Shown: positions 20,923-28,442 of the stretch, in pieces | How positions within the stretch are numbered: position 1 is the first letter of the stretch | Layout: each line of letters opens with the position of its first letter | From: a virus | Lineage: Duplodnaviria > Heunggongvirae > Uroviricota > Caudoviricetes | IMG/VR virus record: IMGVR_UViG_2698536471_000018 | Coordinates: 1-39,898 of that record | Direction: 5' to 3' (one strand) | Length of the DNA: 39,898 nt | Made by a program: the position numbers and the translations under genes | Notes under the pieces: model-generated | What the model saw: only the letters and a program-made list of their open reading frames with translations | What the model was told of the DNA's origin: nothing | Database searches by the model: none

Positions 20923-22279
20923 CAGGTTCGCCGATGCCGGGCGGCGCTTCATCTTCGGCATTCTCGATGTCCTCGTCGGTAATGGATGCCCCGATGCCGG
21001 TTACGTCAGAATTTTCGCGCAAATCAGTCATAGCAGCTTTCAGTGTCATCAGGCCATCACCCAGCGCTGTACTGATTGCGTTGGTGGTGTTTAACGCCAC
21101 CGTTGAACGATCGACATCAGACATTTGCCAGAGCGGGTTAAACTCAAACGTGAAATCATCCGGGAGCGGCTTGCCAAGTTCCGAACGATGCATGATGTCC
21201 AGTATCCGCCGCACCGGAAGACGTAAACGTCTCTCCTGCAACGAACTGATGCGGTCGTAATAGTTGGCAAGGTCTGCATCACCGGTAGAAAATCCTTTCG
21301 GGGACTGTCCGAACAACCGCACCAGTGGGATACCAACAGCGCCACTAATCTGTTCTGCAAACTGTGAAAGGATGTCATCCAGACCACTGAAGCTGTACTG
21401 ATGAGTTTCAAACTTATCCCGCGAGTCCATGAGCGTCATGCCTTCATTGCTCTGGAACTGTCGAATCAGGTCAATATTCTTCAGCAACGCTTCATACGCA
21501 GGACCACCAAGTGCGATAAGCTCGCGTAGCTTCTCCACGCTGTAGGTGCGCAAATGCGCTTTGTAGACCAGTTGCGCCGCGCCGACAGTAGCGCTGTCGA
21601 ACGCGGTAAGACGATCCCAGATACGCTCTACAACCGACATTCCCCATTCGTTCTCGGTCATCTTCTGCTGAAATGGCAGCGTGACGCCATCAAAGCGAAT
21701 CAGTCGACTGTGATGAATGCGCCAGGCAGGAATTCCCGTTGCTGTGGTCACCACATCGTAAAACTCAGGTTTACCCAGGTCCGGCCCCATATCTTTAATG
21801 CGGCGGGTCAGTACCGGGTCAATCATCCAGCGGTCGAGCGGGAGAATCCCCTTAAACTTGCCTTTACCGATGGTTTCGGGTCGCAGAGGGGTCATTGGTG
21901 CCTGCCCCTCAATCATGATGAAACCCACCGCGCCGCCATAGAGGCGCGACCATTTCAGCACGTCGTTCAGTGCATCCCAGATTTGCAACTCATCCAGTTG
22001 TGATTCGAGAATGCCGCGATCTTTTGCATCAATTTCCGAAGTGATGCGAATGCCTTTGCGGGTCATATCATCCGGGATAGCATCGACCGCTTCGCCGATA
22101 ATCCAGGACGAACGATAGGACCATTCCACCAGCATGCGGTTACGACTGGTAAAATTAGCCCGGTAGGTGGATGCTGAGTGCTGGTTAGGTGTCTGCATCC
22201 CTACGCGGGCAATAAAATTCTCATAACCATCGGCTGTGGCCTGCGCAGTTCGCCGCAGGGCTTGTTTGTTTCGTGCCAT
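20813..22279 (-). CDS. Portal protein
   Basis: 488-aa protein directly downstream of large terminase with acidic C-terminus. Confidence 0.75.
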   Translation of the reverse strand: MARNKQALRRTAQATADGYENFIARVGMQTPNQHSASTYRANFTSRNRMLVEWSYRSSWIIGEAVDAIPDDMTRKGIRITSEIDAKDRGILESQLDELQIWDALNDVLKWSRLYGGAVGFIMIEGQAPMTPLRPETIGKGKFKGILPLDRWMIDPVLTRRIKDMGPDLGKPEFYDVVTTATGIPAWRIHHSRLIRFDGVTLPFQQKMTENEWGMSVVERIWDRLTAFDSATVGAAQLVYKAHLRTYSVEKLRELIALGGPAYEALLKNIDLIRQFQSNEGMTLMDSRDKFETHQYSFSGLDDILSQFAEQISGAVGIPLVRLFGQSPKGFSTGDADLANYYDRISSLQERRLRLPVRRILDIMHRSELGKPLPDDFTFEFNPLWQMSDVDRSTVALNTTNAISTALGDGLMTLKAAMTDLRENSDVTGIGASITDEDIENAEDEAPPGIGEPDDEPQEPSGGNPLSNQPTQDSAGGRRHRKWSLRWFK

Positions 22280-23901
22280 CAGGCCTGTCTCCCTAGCAAC
22301 TCCCAGATGTTCAGGGCTGAATTCATTGGGGCATAGTTGATCATCACCGAGTCGGCAAGGTTTGGCGACCGGGTTCCATCAGGCTGTTTATCAATAACGA
22401 TTTTTCCCACACCATTAATGGAATAGGTCGGCTGCGAAAGCTCGATGATGAGTTTATCTTTGAGTGCCATGCTACTGCTGATTGAGATGATTTCGTCCGG
22501 GTTGTAAGCCATACCTTCAACCACGGCGCGCCAGGTATTCTGAAAAAGTTTACGTAACCGCCACCAGCTCTGGGCTTTGGCGTTAGCGAAGAAGTCCTTG
22601 TTCAGACGTGCGGCTTGCCCGTTGTCCCCGCGAACAGCTTCATCATCCGGATCAAATACCGCGCCACTACCTCGAAACGGTGTGGCGAGTATTGACGGTC
22701 GACGCGCAGCGTTACGCAGTTCGTTGATAGCGCGTGCATCGCCGCGAACTCCAGCGCCCAGTCCGTCCTCGTCAAAGCGAAACTCTTCGAGGTTATCCTG
22801 TTCGCAAAAGCCGAAAATCTTCTCGACGGACTGATAAATGTCGCTGCCCACACCGGACCATTCCCGCACATTTTCCAGGAGGAAGCCATGACGGGTGGAA
22901 AAGGCATTTTTGTCCCTGCCTTCGTCGGCGACATCCATCGCGCCAAGTCGTTTGCCTGTTGGCTGGATACCCAGTTTGATATGCGCATCAACGGCAGCCT
23001 GTACCCATTCGGATGGAATCAGGACGCCTTCCGCTGATGCGCTGTAGTTCAGATCAAGTTCCTGTGCCACCACCACCGGATTATCGATTTTCTCGCATTC
23101 CCTGCGATACCACTCTTCATCCTTGCGAGGATCATCCCGCCAGTGGAATGTGAATACCGGTATCTTCCCGCCATGACGCTTCTGAGCGAACGGGTTAGCC
23201 ATGCCGTTAACTGAACTCAGGTCGATACGGCAACGCGTCGTTTGTGACAACGCCGCATCAATCAGCAGAGGACGCTGAAGGAATGCAGCCTCATCAACCA
23301 GATAAAGCGTGGTACGGTCACCACGACCAATATTATCGCCAGCCTCGCCTTTGATAACGGCACCAGTTTCAGGAAACTCAACACGCATATATGGCGCGTG
23401 CTTCTTCTCACTCCACGAACCGCGAAACTCTACAGGTAGCGTTTCCACGAACTTGCGCGCCTTCCAGAACAATGCTTTCGGGTCACCAGTGCTGTCGACG
23501 TATTCCTCTTTACGGGAGCCAAAACCGATAACCATTTCTTTGTTGAAGAGACAAAGCGAGCATGCCAGTCCGATCGCGGTCCAACTGAGCCCCATTTCAC
23601 GGGATTTTTCGGTAATACCATTCTCCCGATTGCTCCAGCGTTCCATAATCCAGTGGATCCACTCCTCCTGCTTAGGGAAGAGTAAAAACGGAATGGTCAC
23701 CGGCAGGCCATAATCAATATTACGCGGGTCCGTTGTCATGCCCCAGTCGATGATGAACTGAGCCGGATTGGTTCGGTAAAACTGTTTTAGTGCAGGCAAT
23801 ATTTCAGGATTCTGGCGAATGCGCTGTAGGCGTTCCATCCGCCATTCAAAAACCATCTGGTAATCAGGATGTTTAAAATCGAAGGGGAATGGTAACGGCA
23901 T
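22279..23901 (-). CDS. Terminase large subunit
   Basis: 540-aa protein; contains the motif LYLVDEAAF (Walker-B-like DEAA) in an ATPase region; precedes portal. Confidence 0.85.
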
Positions 23902-23905
23902 ACTC

Positions 23906-24457
23906 TTAGCCCATCATTTTTCTATACGCTTCTGCAACCTGCTCCGGCGTTAAGTTGGTAATTTCTGTTCTGACTGGTCCTCCGTCAGCACCAGTCACTT
24001 CATTTTTGACATTGTCTTTAAACGCCTGAACAGAAACATGACGCCCGAGCAACTCAAGGTTTTTAACCTTATCAGGCCATTTGATTTTCTTCAGAAGTGC
24101 GGCGCTATCTGCGGATGCCATCTCCACGACATCCATTCCTGATAGCGTTGTGCGCCATACCTTAGGCCAGTCTTTAATGGGCTTTAGCTCACCGTTTTGC
24201 AGGAGAATGTCGAGCACATCCATCTGGTCGATTTCAATAAGGCGATTAAGTACATATCCTGCATTAATACCAACAAGATCATTGCGTTGCGCTTTCAGTT
24301 CGGCGATTCTTAACTTGATGTCAGGTTTTGACAGGTTTTCGGATGCGGTACGGTTAGCTGTCTTTGCGCTGTACCCCGCCCGAATAGCCGCTTGCGTGGC
24401 GTTTAAATCGATGAGGTACTCGCGACAGAACATCTCTTGTTTGTCGGTGAGTGCCAT
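23906..24457 (-). CDS. Terminase small subunit
   Basis: N-terminus [34 protein letters not shown] is the typical small-terminase HTH signature. Confidence 0.85.
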
Positions 24458-24481
24458 GACAAAGTCTCAATTGGATTGAAA

Positions 24482-24754
24482 ATGAGTGATTTATTACTAA
24501 TTAAAAACTGGTTAATTGACCATCATGCACTATCGATTTTCTTTGGGTTTTTATCGGCTGGGTTATGGATCAAATCAGCAACAGCCAAAGTCAAAACAGG
24601 TAGAAGCACCGTTGTAGCAATTACATTTGATGATCCCAAAAAAAATGTAGATCTTCACGAATTTTTCTTAACTGCGCGGTTACAGTCTAAATATAACTCA
24701 TATGCAGCTTTCGCTGCTGCTGTAACTGTGATTTTGCAAATGGCTGGCTATTAG
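24482..24754 (+). CDS. Hypothetical small membrane protein (opposite strand to late operon)
   Basis: 90-aa AT-rich ORF with one clear hydrophobic helix; no convincing RBS. Confidence 0.3.
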   Translation: MSDLLLIKNWLIDHHALSIFFGFLSAGLWIKSATAKVKTGRSTVVAITFDDPKKNVDLHEFFLTARLQSKYNSYAAFAAAVTVILQMAGY

Positions 24755-24842
24755 AAAACCTTAACCAGGATATTATTTACCTTTATCAATATCAGTTAAC
24801 GGCTCAAAGTGTAATGGTTCCACATTCTCCTAATGGAGTTAT

Positions 24843-24959
24843 TTACTCGCCCGTCTCGGTAGCCAGCTGCATAAAGCCATTAACCAGCTCAGGCTGACGT
24901 CGTGACGTCTTGCCCGTAAAGGTTTCGCCTGTTTGGGTTTGGTAGATGTCGGACATTGA
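24843..24959 (-). CDS. Hypothetical 38-aa protein
   Basis: Not in ORF track. Translation MSDIYQTQTGETFTGKTSRRQPELVNGFMQLATETGE; AGAGG 8 nt upstream of ATG. Confidence 0.35.
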   Translation of the reverse strand, partial: SMSDIYQTQTGETFTGKTSRRQPELVNGFMQLATETGE

Positions 24960-25070
24960 GAGCCTCTTTATCTGCTTGTGGGGATATATGGTTAATTATC
25001 CTCTGTAGGGGATACTGCCATCACAATGGGGAGAATCATCGTAATGGCAATAAAAACCGCCCATAGGCAG

Positions 25071-25478
25071 TTAATCTGAAAGACCAAATTTCTTTTTTGC
25101 GTAGGATTTTAGAAGCTCTACACCAACATCTTTCAATACCGATAATGGTTGATCGCTAATTGTTTTTAGCTTCTCAAAAACATCCTTTTGTTGAAGGGTT
25201 TCTGCAAACTCTTGGCCTGATGACGTGAGTCTTACATTGGCTGGCCATTCACGGATTTCATTAAGCCCAATAGTAAGTCCTAATTTCTTAGGATCGCCTA
25301 TTTCTAGAAAATGGTTACTGATATAACCTCTCTCAATCAATTGGTAGTAATGAAAGAGTCCTTTATCGCTGCTTATTTCGTATCCAGCTTTTTTAAGGTC
25401 ATTAGCTGATATCAATGGTCCGCCAGCCTTAATAAAAACCCCTAACATTCCCTTCAAGTATTCCAGATCGGTCTGCAT
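25071..25478 (-). CDS. Hypothetical cargo protein (135 aa)
   Basis: AT-rich ORF between lysis cassette and terminase; no recognisable catalytic motif. Confidence 0.5.
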   Translation of the reverse strand: MQTDLEYLKGMLGVFIKAGGPLISANDLKKAGYEISSDKGLFHYYQLIERGYISNHFLEIGDPKKLGLTIGLNEIREWPANVRLTSSGQEFAETLQQKDVFEKLKTISDQPLSVLKDVGVELLKSYAKKKFGLSD

Positions 25479-25536
25479 AAATTACCTCCATCCTGAGAAA
25501 TAGAGATAATATTACCCTTAAAATTCTTCATTAACA

Positions 25537-25998
25537 CTAATTTGAACACTGCTCTTTGATGTAGTCCTGCAAGTAGCCGACCTGCTTCGTCACTGTGACG
25601 ATTCGCTCTCTGAGGGTGAAATAATCCCGTTCAGCGGAGTCAGTAAGTCCGGGGCTGGAAGCATCGCCCAAGCTGCCGGTGCCGGTCTTTCCGCTCGCTG
25701 GACATCGGGCATTGAAGTGCAGCCCACACTTGCCAGTGCGAACACAACGCTGCAGATCATCAAGCTGCTTTTTCGCATCAGCTAGTTCTCCGGTGTATTT
25801 AGCATCGAGTGCATCAGCATCACGCTGGCGCTGCTGCATGTCAGTAATGGTGGCGTTCGCCTTCTCCAGTTCACTGGCCTTGTTATCGCGCTGCTCTTTG
25901 TAGGCGATTGCGTTATCACGGTAATGATTAACAGCCCATGACAGGCAGACGATGATGCAGATAACCAGAGCGGAGATAATCGCGGTTAACCGACTCAT
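25537..25998 (-). CDS. Rz: i-spanin Rz
   Basis: From [30 protein letters not shown]... near-identical to lambda Rz N-terminus; ORF-track start is an upstream artefact. Confidence 0.9.
25590..25778 (-). CDS. Rz1: o-spanin Rz1 (embedded in Rz, +1 frame)
   Basis: Lipoprotein signal with lipobox SVGC followed by Pro-rich region and [10 protein letters not shown], as in lambda Rz1. Confidence 0.85.
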
Positions 25999-26086
25999 GA
26001 CATCAACACTCCAACGGCCAGAAACCACGGCCACGCATCGTTGCCATTGAATGCGAGCAACGCTGCCATGAAAAAGCAAATCATGC

Positions 26087-26590
26087 TCATTGTTGCCCCC
26101 ACAAACAGACTTCACGCTCAATCTCACGACGAGTCATCAGACCTTTCCATTGCTTACCGCCAGCGTATGTCCAGCGACGTAGCTGATCACATGCGCCTTT
26201 GATATCGCCCTGGTTGATTTTGCGCAGAAGCGTCGATGTTCTGAAATTGCCAGCACCCACGTTGTAAACGAATGAGTAAAGAGCGCCGCGCGTTGTTTCC
26301 GGTATATCGACTTTGATGTACGGGTTAATTTGTCTGGCTACCGTGGCAAGGTCTTTATTCAGGAGGGCTTTGCATTCTGCTTCGGTATACGTTTTACCGG
26401 GAATGATGTCTTTTCCTGTATGCCCGTGACATACAGTCCATACGCCAACGATATCTTTGTATGGTATGTAGCTGACACCTTCCAGACCATCGTTACCACC
26501 TGGACCAGTGATTAACACTGATGCTATAGCAATAGCCCCGCCACTTATCGCCGCTATTACGCTATTTCGTAGTGCCGGTGACATTGCCAT
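26087..26590 (-). CDS. R: SAR endolysin (phage 21 R-type lysozyme)
   Basis: N-terminal Gly/Ala-rich signal-anchor-release helix ([26 protein letters not shown]) then lysozyme domain. Confidence 0.9.
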
Positions 26591-26765
26591 TCAATCTGTC
26601 CTCGCGCTCTTTGCGCTTGTAGTACCAGTTGATGCCAAATGTGCCGACAGTACAAAGAATACCAATGATGACAGCCCAGTCATTCAGGGAGAGAATGCCA
26701 CCCATCGCAGTCAGTCCTCCGAAGCTGTAACTGAACCATTCTCTGATTTTGTCCATACGGTACAT
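26562..26765 (-). CDS. S: Class II holin / pinholin with dual start (MYRM...)
   Basis: 67 aa, two TM segments, charged C-terminus, Met1/Met4 dual-start; hairpin CCCCT-N6-AGGGG immediately upstream, resembling the lambda sdi structure. Confidence 0.75.
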
Positions 26766-27008
26766 GCTCTACCCCTTCATTGAGGGGATTTGCTCTATTT
26801 AATTAGGAATAAGGTCGATTACTGATAGAACAAATCCAGGCTACTGTGTTTAGTAATCAGATTTGTTCGTGACCGATATGCACGGGCAAAACGGCATGAG
26901 GTTGTTAGCGCAACCTCTTGCCACCCGCTTTCACGAGGTCATGTGTAGAAGGCCGCAGCGTAACTATCACTGATGAATTCAGGATAGCCAGTGGCTACGG
27001 CTCAGTTA

Positions 27009-27084
27009 TGGTGCTGGTTAACGGACTTGAACCGCTACCCATTCGCTTACAAGGCGACTGCTCTACCATTGGAGCTAAACCAGC
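27009..27084 (-). tRNA. tRNA-Thr (anticodon UGU)
   Basis: Hand-folded cloverleaf: 7-bp acceptor stem GCTGGTT/AACCAGC, anticodon loop CTTGTAA, T-loop TTCAAGT, 3' ACCA. Confidence 0.75.
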
Positions 27085-27089
27085 ATATT

Positions 27090-27164
27090 TGGCGGGACAG
27101 CGTGGACTCGAACCACGATAAGAAGGTTAACAGCCTTCCGTAATGACCTTTATACGACTGACCC
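27090..27164 (-). tRNA. tRNA-Asn (anticodon GUU)
   Basis: Anticodon stem GAAGG/CCTTC with loop CTGTTAA, T-arm CGTGG-TTCGAGT-CCACG, 3' GCCA; one acceptor-stem mismatch and irregular D-arm. Confidence 0.6.
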
Positions 27165-27218
27165 AAATAAAAAAAGCCACCGTTGCAACTTAAGAGTCAC
27201 TAACGGCAGCTTACATCT

Positions 27219-27731
27219 TTAAACGGTATGATATTTCATTCTGGCTGCCTCAAAAGCCGCAGCGGCAAGTTCTGCTGTGTCATGGTATCCAAGGTTAATA
27301 CACTTTCCAGACGCATTAATTCTTGCTCTCCATTTCCCGTACTTAGCATCCCAAGACACGCCACGGTACCCAGATTTATTATTCTTCTGAATTTTCCTGT
27401 TCTGCATATTTTCGGAATGAGTGACAAGACGAAGATTTGATATCCGGTTATCTGTTCTTACCCTGTTGATGTGATCAATAATGCCATCGGGCATGGTGCC
27501 ATAAACAATCAACCATGCCAGTCTGTGAGCAGGGTATGCTTTACCATTAAGCATAATCATTAAATACCCACCAGAACTTATTGATGAGCATTTCTTGAAA
27601 GCAAAACGAGAGTTCCATGTCAAAGTAGTCCTCTCTCTCCCCCGCCTCCATTTCCAGTGAAAGTCGCCTGATGATGGATTGTAATCAACAACAGAAAGCA
27701 CCATTTCTGGCGTTAATTTTATTTCTTTCAT
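27219..27731 (-). CDS. HNH homing endonuclease with AP2 DNA-binding domain
   Basis: HNH motif (HRLAWLIVYG...IDHINRVRTDNRISNLRLVTHSENMQN) followed by AP2-type motif (SGYRGVSWDAKYGKWRARI...LGYHDTAELAAAAFEAA). Confidence 0.85.
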   Translation of the reverse strand: MKEIKLTPEMVLSVVDYNPSSGDFHWKWRRGRERTTLTWNSRFAFKKCSSISSGGYLMIMLNGKAYPAHRLAWLIVYGTMPDGIIDHINRVRTDNRISNLRLVTHSENMQNRKIQKNNKSGYRGVSWDAKYGKWRARINASGKCINLGYHDTAELAAAAFEAARMKYHTV

Positions 27732-27953: not shown

Positions 27954-28442
27954 CTATGCTACATGTTTAATTTTCTCTACACGTTTCCGGTTTTTAAACG
28001 CACTATCCAGAACCGGGTAAATCATAAACAACGAGGCATTAAGGATTTCGTCAACTTCCCGTCGACAGGTTGCGAGCGATGGTTTTTGAATGCGCCCGCC
28101 GCCCCGGCATAACATCTTGCGAGGTCTTGCGACGCGATGATAGTAAGATGCAATGGCGTGCCTGGAAGAACCATGAGCGTAGTAGCTGAGGAGGATGCCA
28201 AAGGCTTTCTTGTCAATGTACATGACGGAATCGACGACCTGAGAAATCAACATTCCATCATCATCATTGCACATTGGCCTTGTCATAACTCTCCCCGGCT
28301 CTACGCTCTCCATGAACTTCGCTATTACGCTGCTCATGCGCTTTTCCAGACGACCTGAATAAACCCATGCGCCCCACAGTTCAAGCCAGCCATTCAGCCA
28401 CTCGTGCTGCTCTTTGGTGAGGTTTAGTTCTCTTATGCCCAC
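27954..28442 (-). CDS. Q: Late antiterminator Q
   Basis: 162-aa protein in Q position upstream of PR'-tR' and lysis genes; Cys/His-containing C-terminal half. Confidence 0.7.

Follow-up and report, generated by a model that had tools for sequence, protein, structure and literature searches.

A lambdoid Escherichia coli prophage with three independently inherited pieces between its lysis and packaging genes, and a probable pid-type accessory gene opposite the late operon

In a lambdoid E. coli prophage, the junction between the lysis and packaging genes consists of a conserved late gene, a broken gene and a gene on the opposite strand. These are three independently inherited pieces, and the last of them, a cassette carrying a 90-aa gene (p90), probably occupies a pid-type accessory slot, which is the best reading overall. 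Under this reading p90 would add an uncharacterised gene to a kind of prophage accessory element that is already known. The window, that is, the whole stretch of DNA analysed, is 39,898 nucleotides long. E. coli MS 119-7 and WAT share the region, with 99.8-100% identity. The anatomy of the region and its recombination joints are as follows.

23906..24457, − strand: terS (Terminase_2; PF03592, E=2e-39), whose 5' end carries the predicted promoter of the slot
24282..24317, + strand: predicted weak σ70 promoter for p90, inside terS and antisense to it, placed by homology to P22 Ppid
24317..24481, + strand: predicted 165-nt p90 5'UTR, antisense to the ribosome-binding region and codons 1-47 of terS
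24458..24845, + strand: p90 cassette (24-nt spacer, p90 ORF and 91-nt 3' region)
24482..24754, + strand: p90, 90 aa, predicted two-helix and possibly inner-membrane protein, facing against the late operon
24843..24956, − strand: 37-aa ORF, 5' part of a truncated phrog_6581 gene (65-73 aa when complete) that has lost 4 codons internally
24969..24986, − strand: proximal TATCC-N8-(G/A)GATA palindrome (the first GGGGATA of the earlier note), abutting the Shine-Dalgarno sequence
24997..25014, − strand: distal TATCC-N8-GGATA palindrome (the second GGGGATA)
25013..25052, − strand: imperfect 16-bp hairpin (UAUUGCCAUUACGAUG...CAUUGUGAUGGCAGUA) in the leader of the truncated phrog_6581 gene
25045..25072, − strand: intrinsic-terminator-like hairpin and T-run, directly behind the p135 stop codon
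25071..25478, − strand: p135, 135 aa, late-operon gene, candidate divergent DUF2513 winged-helix protein with a conserved C-terminal helix

An earlier note on this DNA had described a cargo cluster of three small genes at a known moron hotspot. The three ORFs, their low G+C and the GGGGATA repeats all lie at the positions claimed. The 135-aa ORF has GGAGG 6 nt upstream of its ATG, and the good ribosome-binding site ascribed to the micro-ORF is AAGAGG, also 6 nt upstream of the ATG; the length given for that ORF, 38 aa, is corrected to 37 aa plus the stop codon. Counted from its first ATG, the antisense ORF is 90 aa long as stated, which is the version annotated in RefSeq, and the ORF list allows an extension to 105 aa via an upstream TTG start. 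It had been called hydrophobic and is moderately so, since its two helices average 1.3-1.5 on the Kyte-Doolittle scale over 17 residues. The AT-richness is also borne out: G+C is 0.37-0.44 across 24450-25500, as opposed to 0.50-0.57 in the terL/portal region and 0.50-0.55 in Rz. The base composition of the junction thus differs from that of its neighbouring genes (0.37-0.44 vs 0.50-0.57), as expected of a moron, and the junction is mosaic among related loci, in keeping with a hotspot. No catalytic or known-function domain was recognised in the three ORFs (Pfam, PHROG, NCBIfam, PADLOC). PADLOC and NCBIfam gave no match for any of them, and none combines a PADLOC model with a fixed partner gene, as a known defence or toxin-antitoxin system does. 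A search of 23800-27300 against Rfam at E<=1 returned two tRNAs and nothing else. The part of the description that fails is the cluster itself, because the ORFs are separately inherited. Domain searches and structure prediction, which the note had proposed as a check, identified the micro-ORF as phrog_6581, gave p135 a winged-helix model with a weak DUF2513 match, and left p90 as a helical protein matching phrog_14357 only.

The first piece is p135. A spanin gene directly precedes the members of its family in every case, and this position is fixed behind unrelated spanin types (PF03245, DUF2514), with varied holins and lysozymes upstream and different terminases downstream. Because it always lies directly after the spanin gene, p135 is a position-conserved late gene and not a free moron. 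Ordinary late-operon homology, which the earlier note had set against its own proposal, is thus partly borne out, through this gene. The upstream side of p135 lacks a promoter-like site and a terminator follows downstream; the gene would be read from the Q-antiterminated late transcript, directly behind Rz/Rz1 and with the intrinsic terminator next.

Against DUF2513 (PF10711), p135 scores 15.4 bits, below the Pfam gathering cutoff of 29.6. Weak matches to the same family occur in 35 of 41 p135 relatives (best E 3.7e-5), two match YjcQ (PF09639), and several carry the source name "DUF2513 domain-containing". The predicted model, which is dimeric, has the winged-helix fold of DUF2513, and a highly conserved C-terminal helix of ~30 residues lies outside the domain. 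These weak but consistent matches and models suggest that p135 is a divergent protein of the DUF2513 kind, a family that, like p135 itself, is without known function. Binding of DNA by p135 is uncertain, because its pI is neutral (6.7) and its putative recognition helix is poor in basic residues. A tblastn search of 50,697 phage records matched four with p135, all hypothetical or unannotated, and literature searches for DUF2513 and for the two RefSeq accessions gave nothing useful. Kinship of p135 to the proteins that take its position elsewhere (Rha; a 161-aa ORF) in other phages was rejected at an hhalign probability below 1%.

The second piece consists of a conserved leader (hairpin, two palindromes and Shine-Dalgarno sequence) followed by the opening 37 codons of phrog_6581. 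The terminator-like hairpin after p135 has a 7-bp stem with 4 G-C pairs, a 4-nt loop and the tail TTTTTATT; its equivalent, a ACCGCCTCCGGGCGG-T6-7 element, is present in most related leaders. The 136-nt leader RNA has a predicted fold of -39.3 kcal/mol (z = -3.0), which is common to most related leaders. Covariation for the leader hairpin does not exceed that of shuffles (92.8% of cells paired vs 92.4%), because the leader sequences are too alike. The GGGGATA direct repeats are genuine: each ends one copy of a 19-nt direct repeat (24968-24986 and 24996-25014, 28 nt apart), and they form the right arms of two TATCC-N8-GGATA palindromes, on the minus strand, in the conserved phrog_6581 leader. 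Within the window alone the repeat is weakly above chance, with 3 matches vs 0.88 expected and 3 reached by 4 of 100 shuffles. The palindromes are kept in related leaders of other phages: the proximal one with at most one mismatch in 78 of 91 distinct leaders, where the search pattern fixed its right half, and the distal one at a fixed 27-28-nt spacing in 45 of 91.

The 37-aa ORF matches phrog_6581 at E=3e-14 over profile positions 1-41 of 66 and falls short of the full length of 65-73 aa. When aligned to full-length proteins of 69 and 67 aa, it ends where those run on with WLYFAP..., and DNA homology to a full-length phrog_6581 locus (L004) begins at 24845, in its stop codon. About one third of 118 copies of phrog_6581 are truncated, at many different points, and RefSeq leaves the ORF unannotated here. 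Judged from these alignments, the ORF is a gene fragment cut at the recombination joint at 24845, so that the dedicated micro-protein envisaged earlier gives way to a truncated remnant of a very common late-operon gene. The recombination that brought in the p90 cassette would have cut phrog_6581.

The third piece is the p90 cassette, facing the opposite way. It is bounded by the terS start codon, where P22/BTP1 homology ends, and by the joint inside phrog_6581, where L004 homology starts (24845). The product is WP_001281633.1 in RefSeq (hypothetical) and matches phrog_14357 at E=4e-62. An exhaustive HMMER search gave a family of ~30 clusters at 50% identity, with the motifs LSAxLW..SA and LQSKWNSxAAxxAA...Q. 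Values of dN/dS of 0.15-0.23 vs orthologues of ~55% identity indicate purifying selection on p90 and mark it as a real gene. The AF2 model (pLDDT 90.7) is a helical hairpin with helices at 2-34 and 58-89, and the protein, with helices that are only moderately hydrophobic, is possibly a membrane protein. For p90, no significant match was obtained in Pfam, NCBIfam or PADLOC, and no phage record among the 50,697 was matched by tblastn. A Pfam scan of 27 family members at E<=1 gave scattered weak matches, with holin and SLATT families absent from them. Searches of PDB sequences with the p90 and p135 family profiles gave nothing below E=0.19, and with Foldseek neither model matched a viral model at E<=0.001. 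No known exclusion or defence family matched p90 in sequence or fold. The antisense ORF bears the hallmarks of an independently expressed accessory gene.

A divergent terS adjoins p90 in every locus with upstream DNA, the exception being L033, where the terS is a degenerate remnant. A gap of 24 nt separates the p90 ORF from the terS start codon. All 62 related loci, many of which are close relatives and so not independent, have an opposite-strand ORF of at least 40 aa that begins 12-44 nt from that codon; an ORF of at least 60 aa is found in the slot in 97% of loci vs 8% of shuffles. The slot ORFs amount to 42 distinct proteins in roughly 18-20 apparently unrelated families, a count read from the sequences and not from formal clustering. 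Cargo in related phages includes Pid, YodC/DUF2158, DUF6953 and many ORFans, and a search of ten other cargo proteins against Pfam and PADLOC returned a weak DUF2441 match and nothing else. Beside one and the same terS (97-98% identity) stands p90 in some loci, an unrelated 72-aa ORF in others, and YodC with DUF6953 in others again, and the p90 cassette is present in 11 of 5426 complete E. coli genomes. Content is thus replaced beside the same terS, the pattern of presence and replacement that a moron shows.

The slot can be tied to a locus with mapped expression. By sequence comparison, the 263 nt upstream of pid in P22/BTP1 are a remnant of the window-type terS 5' end (74% identity). This terminase remnant is unmentioned in both pid papers (PMC3573128, PMC8835761). 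For the P22 promoter, Ppid, published mapping gives a −10 box (AATCCT), a transcript that begins 174 nt before pid, and activity that is weak and constitutive (PMC8835761); in BTP1 lysogens pid ranks in the top five prophage genes by expression, at >100 TPM (PMC7067206). In the alignment, the Ppid −10 box falls on window positions 24305-24310 and its start site on 24317. The predicted p90 promoter, antisense within terS, accordingly has a −35 of TTGCGT (24282-24287), a −10 of GATTCT (24305-24310) and a start at ~24317. It agrees with the consensus at 6 of 12 positions, as does P22's own, and a consensus scan did not flag it. The predicted 5'UTR of 165 nt follows from the mapped start site and the coordinates. 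The promoter sits in coding sequence, and its conservation may reflect constraint on the TerS protein only.

In both P22/BTP1 and the window the gene lies between the lysis cassette and the small terminase, opposite the late operon, with the Ppid region and a long 5'UTR upstream (174 nt for P22 pid vs a predicted 165 nt for p90). Both products are small ORFan proteins (86 aa for Pid, 90 aa for p90). They differ in sequence, with no BLASTP alignment at E<=100 and separate families (phrog_14357 for p90 vs phrog_16546). Pid has a soluble-coiled-coil look and derepresses the host dgo operon (PMC3573128, PMC8835761), whereas p90 is a two-helix, possibly membrane protein. The terS that underlies the P22 promoter survives as a dead remnant, with orf80 and an unrelated gene 3 behind it, whereas the window terS is intact. 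Finally, an intrinsic terminator closes pid at its 3' end, and a search for one behind p90 found nothing.

On the pid-type reading, a weak constitutive promoter, antisense to terS and within its first 150 nt, would drive p90, and the 165-nt leader of this transcript would be complementary to the terS start. We infer that lysogens or carrier cells produce p90, rather than cells in the lytic cycle, and that late transcription would silence it through convergent and antisense transcription. The protein would act at the inner membrane, most plausibly in exclusion of superinfecting phages or in another modification of the host.

Two other kinds of prophage gene offer a comparison. Lambda bor is an opposite-strand accessory gene right after Rz/Rz1 in the late region and is expressed from the prophage; its product is an outer-membrane lipoprotein with a lipobox cysteine. 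T4 Imm and HK97 gp15 are small inner-membrane superinfection-exclusion proteins. In contrast to Bor, p90 has neither a cysteine nor a signal peptide, it gave no match to the Bor family (Pfam, E<=1), and its gene abuts terS where bor abuts Rz. Like Imm, gp15 and P22 SieA, p90 is the small, helical and possibly membrane-associated product of a temperate-phage accessory gene; it matches none of the three in sequence or fold. Expression of p90 outside the lytic programme is predicted, and the analogy with exclusion proteins would be functional only. Bor has been named among lysogen-expressed genes (PMC7067206), and SieA is an inner-membrane protein through which the P22 prophage excludes superinfecting phages (PMC10883804).

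There are several other ways to account for the junction. The three ORFs could all simply serve the lytic cycle, for example in lysis timing or as packaging helpers, and do nothing in the lysogen. The fixed position of p135 after the spanin gene without a promoter of its own, the frequency of phrog_6581 on the late strand just upstream of terS, and the tight linkage of p90 to terS over deep divergence are all consistent with this. We nonetheless consider it rather unlikely: p90 faces against the late operon, which puts it out of reach of the late promoter; the homologous P22/BTP1 slot gene is active in lysogens and carrier cells and not in strictly lytic growth; unrelated genes replace the slot content beside the same terS, which is unexpected for an essential helper; and the copy of phrog_6581 is truncated here.

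A further alternative makes the plus-strand RNA the working product, with the 165-nt leader damping leaky terS expression or blocking related superinfecting phages and the ORF being secondary. Over its whole length the predicted leader is the complement of terS codons 1-47 and of the ribosome-binding region, the 5' end of this terS is found at 92-95% DNA identity in several phages, and a terS 5' remnant persists upstream of the cargo even where terS is degenerate (P22/BTP1, L033). There is also a precedent in BTP1 STnc6030, a documented non-coding antisense RNA of the prophage that excludes related phage and targets injection and tailspike genes (PMC7067206). Like the p90 leader, STnc6030 is antisense to late structural or packaging genes, and either could act on a related incoming phage; STnc6030 is non-coding, whereas the antisense part of the p90 transcript is the leader of a protein-coding mRNA with terS as its putative target. 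Purifying selection on p90, the occurrence of its protein family away from any terS (remote relatives have no constant neighbour), and the P22 phenotype, which a start-codon frameshift test assigns to the Pid protein and not to RNA, make a purely RNA-based role improbable. The RNA and protein roles of the p90 unit are not mutually exclusive.

A toxin-antitoxin or abortive-infection pair, with p90 as membrane toxin and p135 as winged-helix antitoxin or regulator, is very improbable. A small helical, possibly membrane protein beside a small HTH-type protein does resemble some layouts of such systems, and both genes are AT-rich. However, p90 occurs without p135 (L005, L014, L018-L022) and p135 without p90 (L004, L162-L170), the two are convergent with a pseudogene between them, p135 is in the late operon without a promoter-like site, and PADLOC found nothing. 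The toxin/antitoxin-like role that the earlier note had allowed for is unlikely on these grounds. Equally hard to credit is p135 as a regulator of the two TATCC-N8-GGATA palindromes just downstream: a dimeric winged-helix model does adjoin two 18-bp palindromes spaced 28 bp apart, but we rejected this because the two do not co-occur, as the palindromes accompany phrog_6581 whatever the gene upstream (Rha, an unrelated 161-aa protein, others), p135 is present in only ~11 of 118 leader-bearing loci, and its homologues in L165-L170 have no such palindromes downstream.

A wider proposal, which we put forward tentatively and regard as possible at most, is that the 5' end of Terminase_2-type terS is a portable expression platform, whose antisense promoter drives a gene 12-44 nt beyond the start codon. 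The transcript would be bifunctional, its leader acting antisense on the terS of the prophage or of related incoming phages and p90 being a new membrane-level exclusion or host-modifying factor. If so, the slot with its roughly 18-20 ORFan families would be an unrecognised reservoir of prophage defence and conversion genes, and the "exceptionally long" 5'UTR of P22 pid would be explained as a terS fossil.

For annotation, the micro-ORF becomes a gene fragment and the 135-aa gene a conserved late gene with a predicted winged-helix fold. Few accessory ORFans from this section of the late region have had their expression dissected, and one of them is P22 pid. Its promoter and long leader appear not to be peculiar to P22 and would instead be the antisense face of a small-terminase gene; the same platform seems to carry many unrelated small genes in enterobacterial prophages. 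A single curiosity would thereby become a class with a common, testable expression logic, and with it comes a defined list of candidate lysogen-expressed genes, p90 included, to screen for phage exclusion and host effects.

The window is a lambdoid prophage with its late operon on the minus strand, in the order Q, HNH_3+AP2 ORF, tRNAs, holin, lysozyme, Rz/Rz1, three-ORF region, terS, terL and portal. The features needed here are:

27954-28442, minus strand: antiterminator Q (PF06530)
27219-27731, minus strand: HNH_3+AP2 endonuclease ORF, between Q and the tRNA genes
27009-27164, minus strand: phage-borne genes for tRNA-Thr(tgt) and tRNA-Asn(gtt), flanked by the Q/HNH region and the holin gene
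25590-25778, minus strand: Rz1 (PF06085; 62 aa), embedded in Rz in the +1 frame, lipobox-like motif LASVGC
25537-25998, minus strand: Rz (PF03245; 153 aa in RefSeq)
25071-25478, minus strand: 135-aa ORF (p135)
25072-25055, minus strand: intrinsic-terminator-like hairpin, with a T-run, directly downstream of p135
24957-25072, minus strand: phrog_6581 leader, conserved non-coding, in at least 118 IMG/VR contigs (L044-L161)
24843-24956, minus strand: 37-aa ORF
24482-24754, plus strand: 90-aa ORF (p90)
23906-24457, minus strand: terS (Terminase_2, E=2e-39)

The three ORFs and the GGGGATA repeats listed in the earlier note were all found in the sequence, and the AT-richness it described holds (G+C 0.37-0.44 over 24450-25500, versus 0.50-0.57 in terL/portal and 0.50-0.55 in Rz). 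Its "38-aa micro-ORF" is present, with a length of 37 aa. The 1.4 kb around the region recurs at 99-100% identity in 10 of 5426 complete E. coli genomes, each time in the chromosome; there, RefSeq lists the 135-aa and 90-aa ORFs as hypothetical proteins and leaves the 37-aa ORF unannotated.

Three neighboring genes drew separate observations. The Rz frame taken mechanically spans 25537-26127 (minus strand; 196 aa from an upstream GTG), against 153 aa in RefSeq. The HNH_3+AP2 ORF at 27219-27731 looks like a homing-endonuclease insertion, because E. coli MS 119-7 (L001) carries a prophage that is otherwise nearly the same but has the tRNAs directly after Q, without this ORF. The 540-aa large-terminase ORF (22279-23901, minus strand) is a "hypothetical protein" in one RefSeq genome and a "TerL protein" in another; a Pfam search with a cutoff of E<=0.001 found nothing for it, and it is apparently a TerL type that existing profiles capture poorly.

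The three-ORF region consists of three separately inherited pieces, with recombination joints at 24845 and at the terS start codon. In prophages of E. coli, Citrobacter and Pantoea, the p135 gene, taken in the earlier note for moron cargo, is always on the spanin gene's strand and 60-90 nt downstream of it; this is true of both PF03245 and DUF2514 spanins and of any holin, lysozyme or terminase present. A scan upstream of p135 found no promoter-like site. Given this fixed place, the lack of such a site and the terminator, p135 is a late gene with a conserved position and not an independent moron. The protein matches phrog_585 (E=1e-26) and scores 15.4 bits against DUF2513, below the 29.6-bit threshold. 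A word-indexed search found 44 related clusters in Enterobacterales, of 134-140 aa except two fragments. Weak DUF2513 matches in 35 of 41 aligned relatives, with YjcQ matches in two, place the family within that winged-helix group as a divergent branch. The AlphaFold model (pLDDT 84) has a winged helix over residues 1-100 followed by C-terminal helices. The neutral pI of p135 (6.7) leaves DNA binding plausible but uncertain. Sequence conservation is highest in the last 30 residues, where confidence in the model is low, which suggests that the C-terminal stretch may be a partner-binding, oligomerisation or membrane-binding helix. Residues 100-135 (window 25071-25181; VFEKLKxISxxPLSVIKDVGVELLKSYAKKKFGL) have the lowest pLDDT of the model (51-66), are the most conserved in the family and end in a basic-hydrophobic motif.

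The 37-aa ORF matches profile positions 1-41 of 66 of phrog_6581 and aligns, with a 4-codon internal deletion, to the N-terminal halves of 67- and 69-aa proteins from other prophages. DNA homology to a locus with a full-length phrog_6581 gene starts exactly at 24845, the stop codon of the 37-aa ORF. In IMG/VR, a pattern scan picked up at least 118 instances of the phrog_6581 gene start; full-length genes encode 65-73 aa (most commonly 72), and about one-third of the instances have been shortened to 11-49 aa, with many different end points. Judged by these alignments, the 37-aa ORF is one of the cut remnants and not a micro-gene of its own.

Its leader (114 nt) is kept irrespective of the upstream gene, and survives in copies whose ORF has been shortened to 11-49 codons. 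It comprises an intrinsic terminator, an imperfect hairpin (TTGCCATCAC...GTAATGGCAA), one or two TATCC-N8-GGATA palindromes and a Shine-Dalgarno sequence. The GGGGATA repeats belong to a 19-nt direct repeat, each copy of which is such a palindrome on the minus strand. The proximal palindrome is kept in 78 of 91 distinct leaders and the distal one in 45 of 91, at a fixed 27-28-nt spacing; the palindromes occur independently of p135. The 136-nt leader RNA has a predicted fold of -39.3 kcal/mol (z -3.0), and most related leaders are predicted to fold similarly. Pairing of the hairpin over 38 variants is 92.8%, versus 92.4% in shuffles, so covariation neither supports nor refutes an RNA structure. 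An Rfam search returned no match for the leader.

The third ORF, p90, matches phrog_14357 (E=4e-62); searches of Pfam, NCBIfam and PADLOC gave it no significant match. When 1.84 billion representatives were searched exhaustively with HMMER, 30 related clusters emerged (proteins of 77-129 aa, besides a handful of shorter fragments and two very long sequences matching only locally), and a profile search found 64; a Pfam scan of 27 family members gave no convincing match. Common to the family are two motifs, LSAxLW..SA (helix 1) and LQSKWNSxAAxxAA....Q (helix 2), with W29, Q68, A75 and A76 invariant. With dN/dS of 0.15-0.23 against orthologues of ~55% identity, the protein is under selection. Its AlphaFold model (pLDDT 90.7) is a helical hairpin (residues 2-34 and 58-89) with a basic loop between; hydropathy is moderate, and a PDB sequence search and a viral fold search gave no informative match. 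The p90 cassette (24458-24845) is present in 11 of 5426 E. coli genomes and absent from all sequenced phage isolates searched. More distant relatives occur as lone small genes, in the early regions of prophages, in an ICE-like region and at chromosomal sites, and those loci have no constant partner gene.

A megablast match led to P22 and BTP1. The DNA upstream of their moron gene pid is a frameshifted remnant of the window's terS 5' end (74% identity over 263 nt), and the homology ends exactly at the terS start codon. The -10 box of pid, AATCCT, maps 181-186 nt upstream and its start site 174 nt upstream, and the promoter has weak constitutive activity without phage factors (Wolput et al., PMC8835761); in BTP1 lysogens, pid is among the five most expressed prophage genes (PMC7067206). 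Alignment to pid places the following elements:

BTP1 (L003, LT714109.2) 455-717, aligned to window 24195-24457 (5' end of the intact terS): remnant upstream of pid; the P22/BTP1 pid promoter and "exceptionally long" 5'UTR are the antisense strand of this frameshifted Terminase_2 terS remnant
24282-24287, plus strand: predicted p90 -35 box, TTGCGT, aligned to the pid promoter
17 nt, plus strand: predicted spacer between -35 and -10
24305-24310, plus strand: predicted p90 -10 box, GATTCT, aligned to the pid -10
24317, plus strand: predicted p90 transcript start (G), aligned to the pid start site

The predicted promoter matches 6 of 12 positions and is equally weak as P22's own. The promoter and long leader of pid are a terS fossil, apparently unreported as far as the two pid papers show, neither of which mentions a terminase remnant there (PMC3573128, PMC8835761). 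The three-ORF region would function much as the P22 pid moron does and has regulatory DNA in common with it, but the protein is not shared: p90 differs from Pid.

In every p90 locus whose upstream sequence was available, save one, a Terminase_2 terS is divergent, with ~24 nt between start codons, and this layout persists when p90 identity is down to 51-57% and that of terS to 22-62%. The only exception is L033 (Pseudomonas silvicola plasmid p1, CP093281.1; about 3800-4264), where a p90 homologue of 56% identity lies behind a degenerate terS 5' remnant and tblastn detected no terS; remnant and cargo seem to travel together there as a unit, as in P22. Wherever the Terminase_2 terS start could be located (62 loci among L002-L161, without exception), an ORF of 40 aa or more on the opposite strand starts 12-44 nt from it; many of these loci are close relatives, so 62/62 should not be read as a number of independent events. 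The slot is occupied by an ORF of at least 60 aa in 97% of loci versus 8% of shuffles. The slot ORFs encode 42 distinct proteins of 42-192 aa in roughly 18-20 apparently unrelated families, judged by eye without formal clustering. They include p90, Pid, YodC/DUF2158, DUF6953 and ORFans of 46-192 aa; DUF2158 and DUF6953 are the only named families, and PADLOC gave no match for any. In the window, the slot holds a cargo gene under selection and is homologous to that of pid.

We propose that the promoter embedded in terS would drive p90 transcription in lysogens or carrier cells, yielding an mRNA with a 165-nt leader antisense to terS codons 1-47 and the terS ribosome-binding region. In lytic growth, late transcription convergent with p90 would switch it off. 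Flanking the cassette, the conserved terS 5' end and, opposite it, the phrog_6581 leader and start could serve as homology arms for cassette exchange, which would explain the many truncation points of phrog_6581. By analogy with other small prophage membrane proteins, p90 might be a membrane-level exclusion or host-modifying factor, a guess we consider rather doubtful. As identities of the region, Bor, a known defence system (p90 having no PADLOC match) and a toxin-antitoxin pair were rejected. A wider point, apparently unreported in the pid papers (PMC3573128, PMC8835761), is that intact terS genes may offer a pid-type platform to many ORFans.
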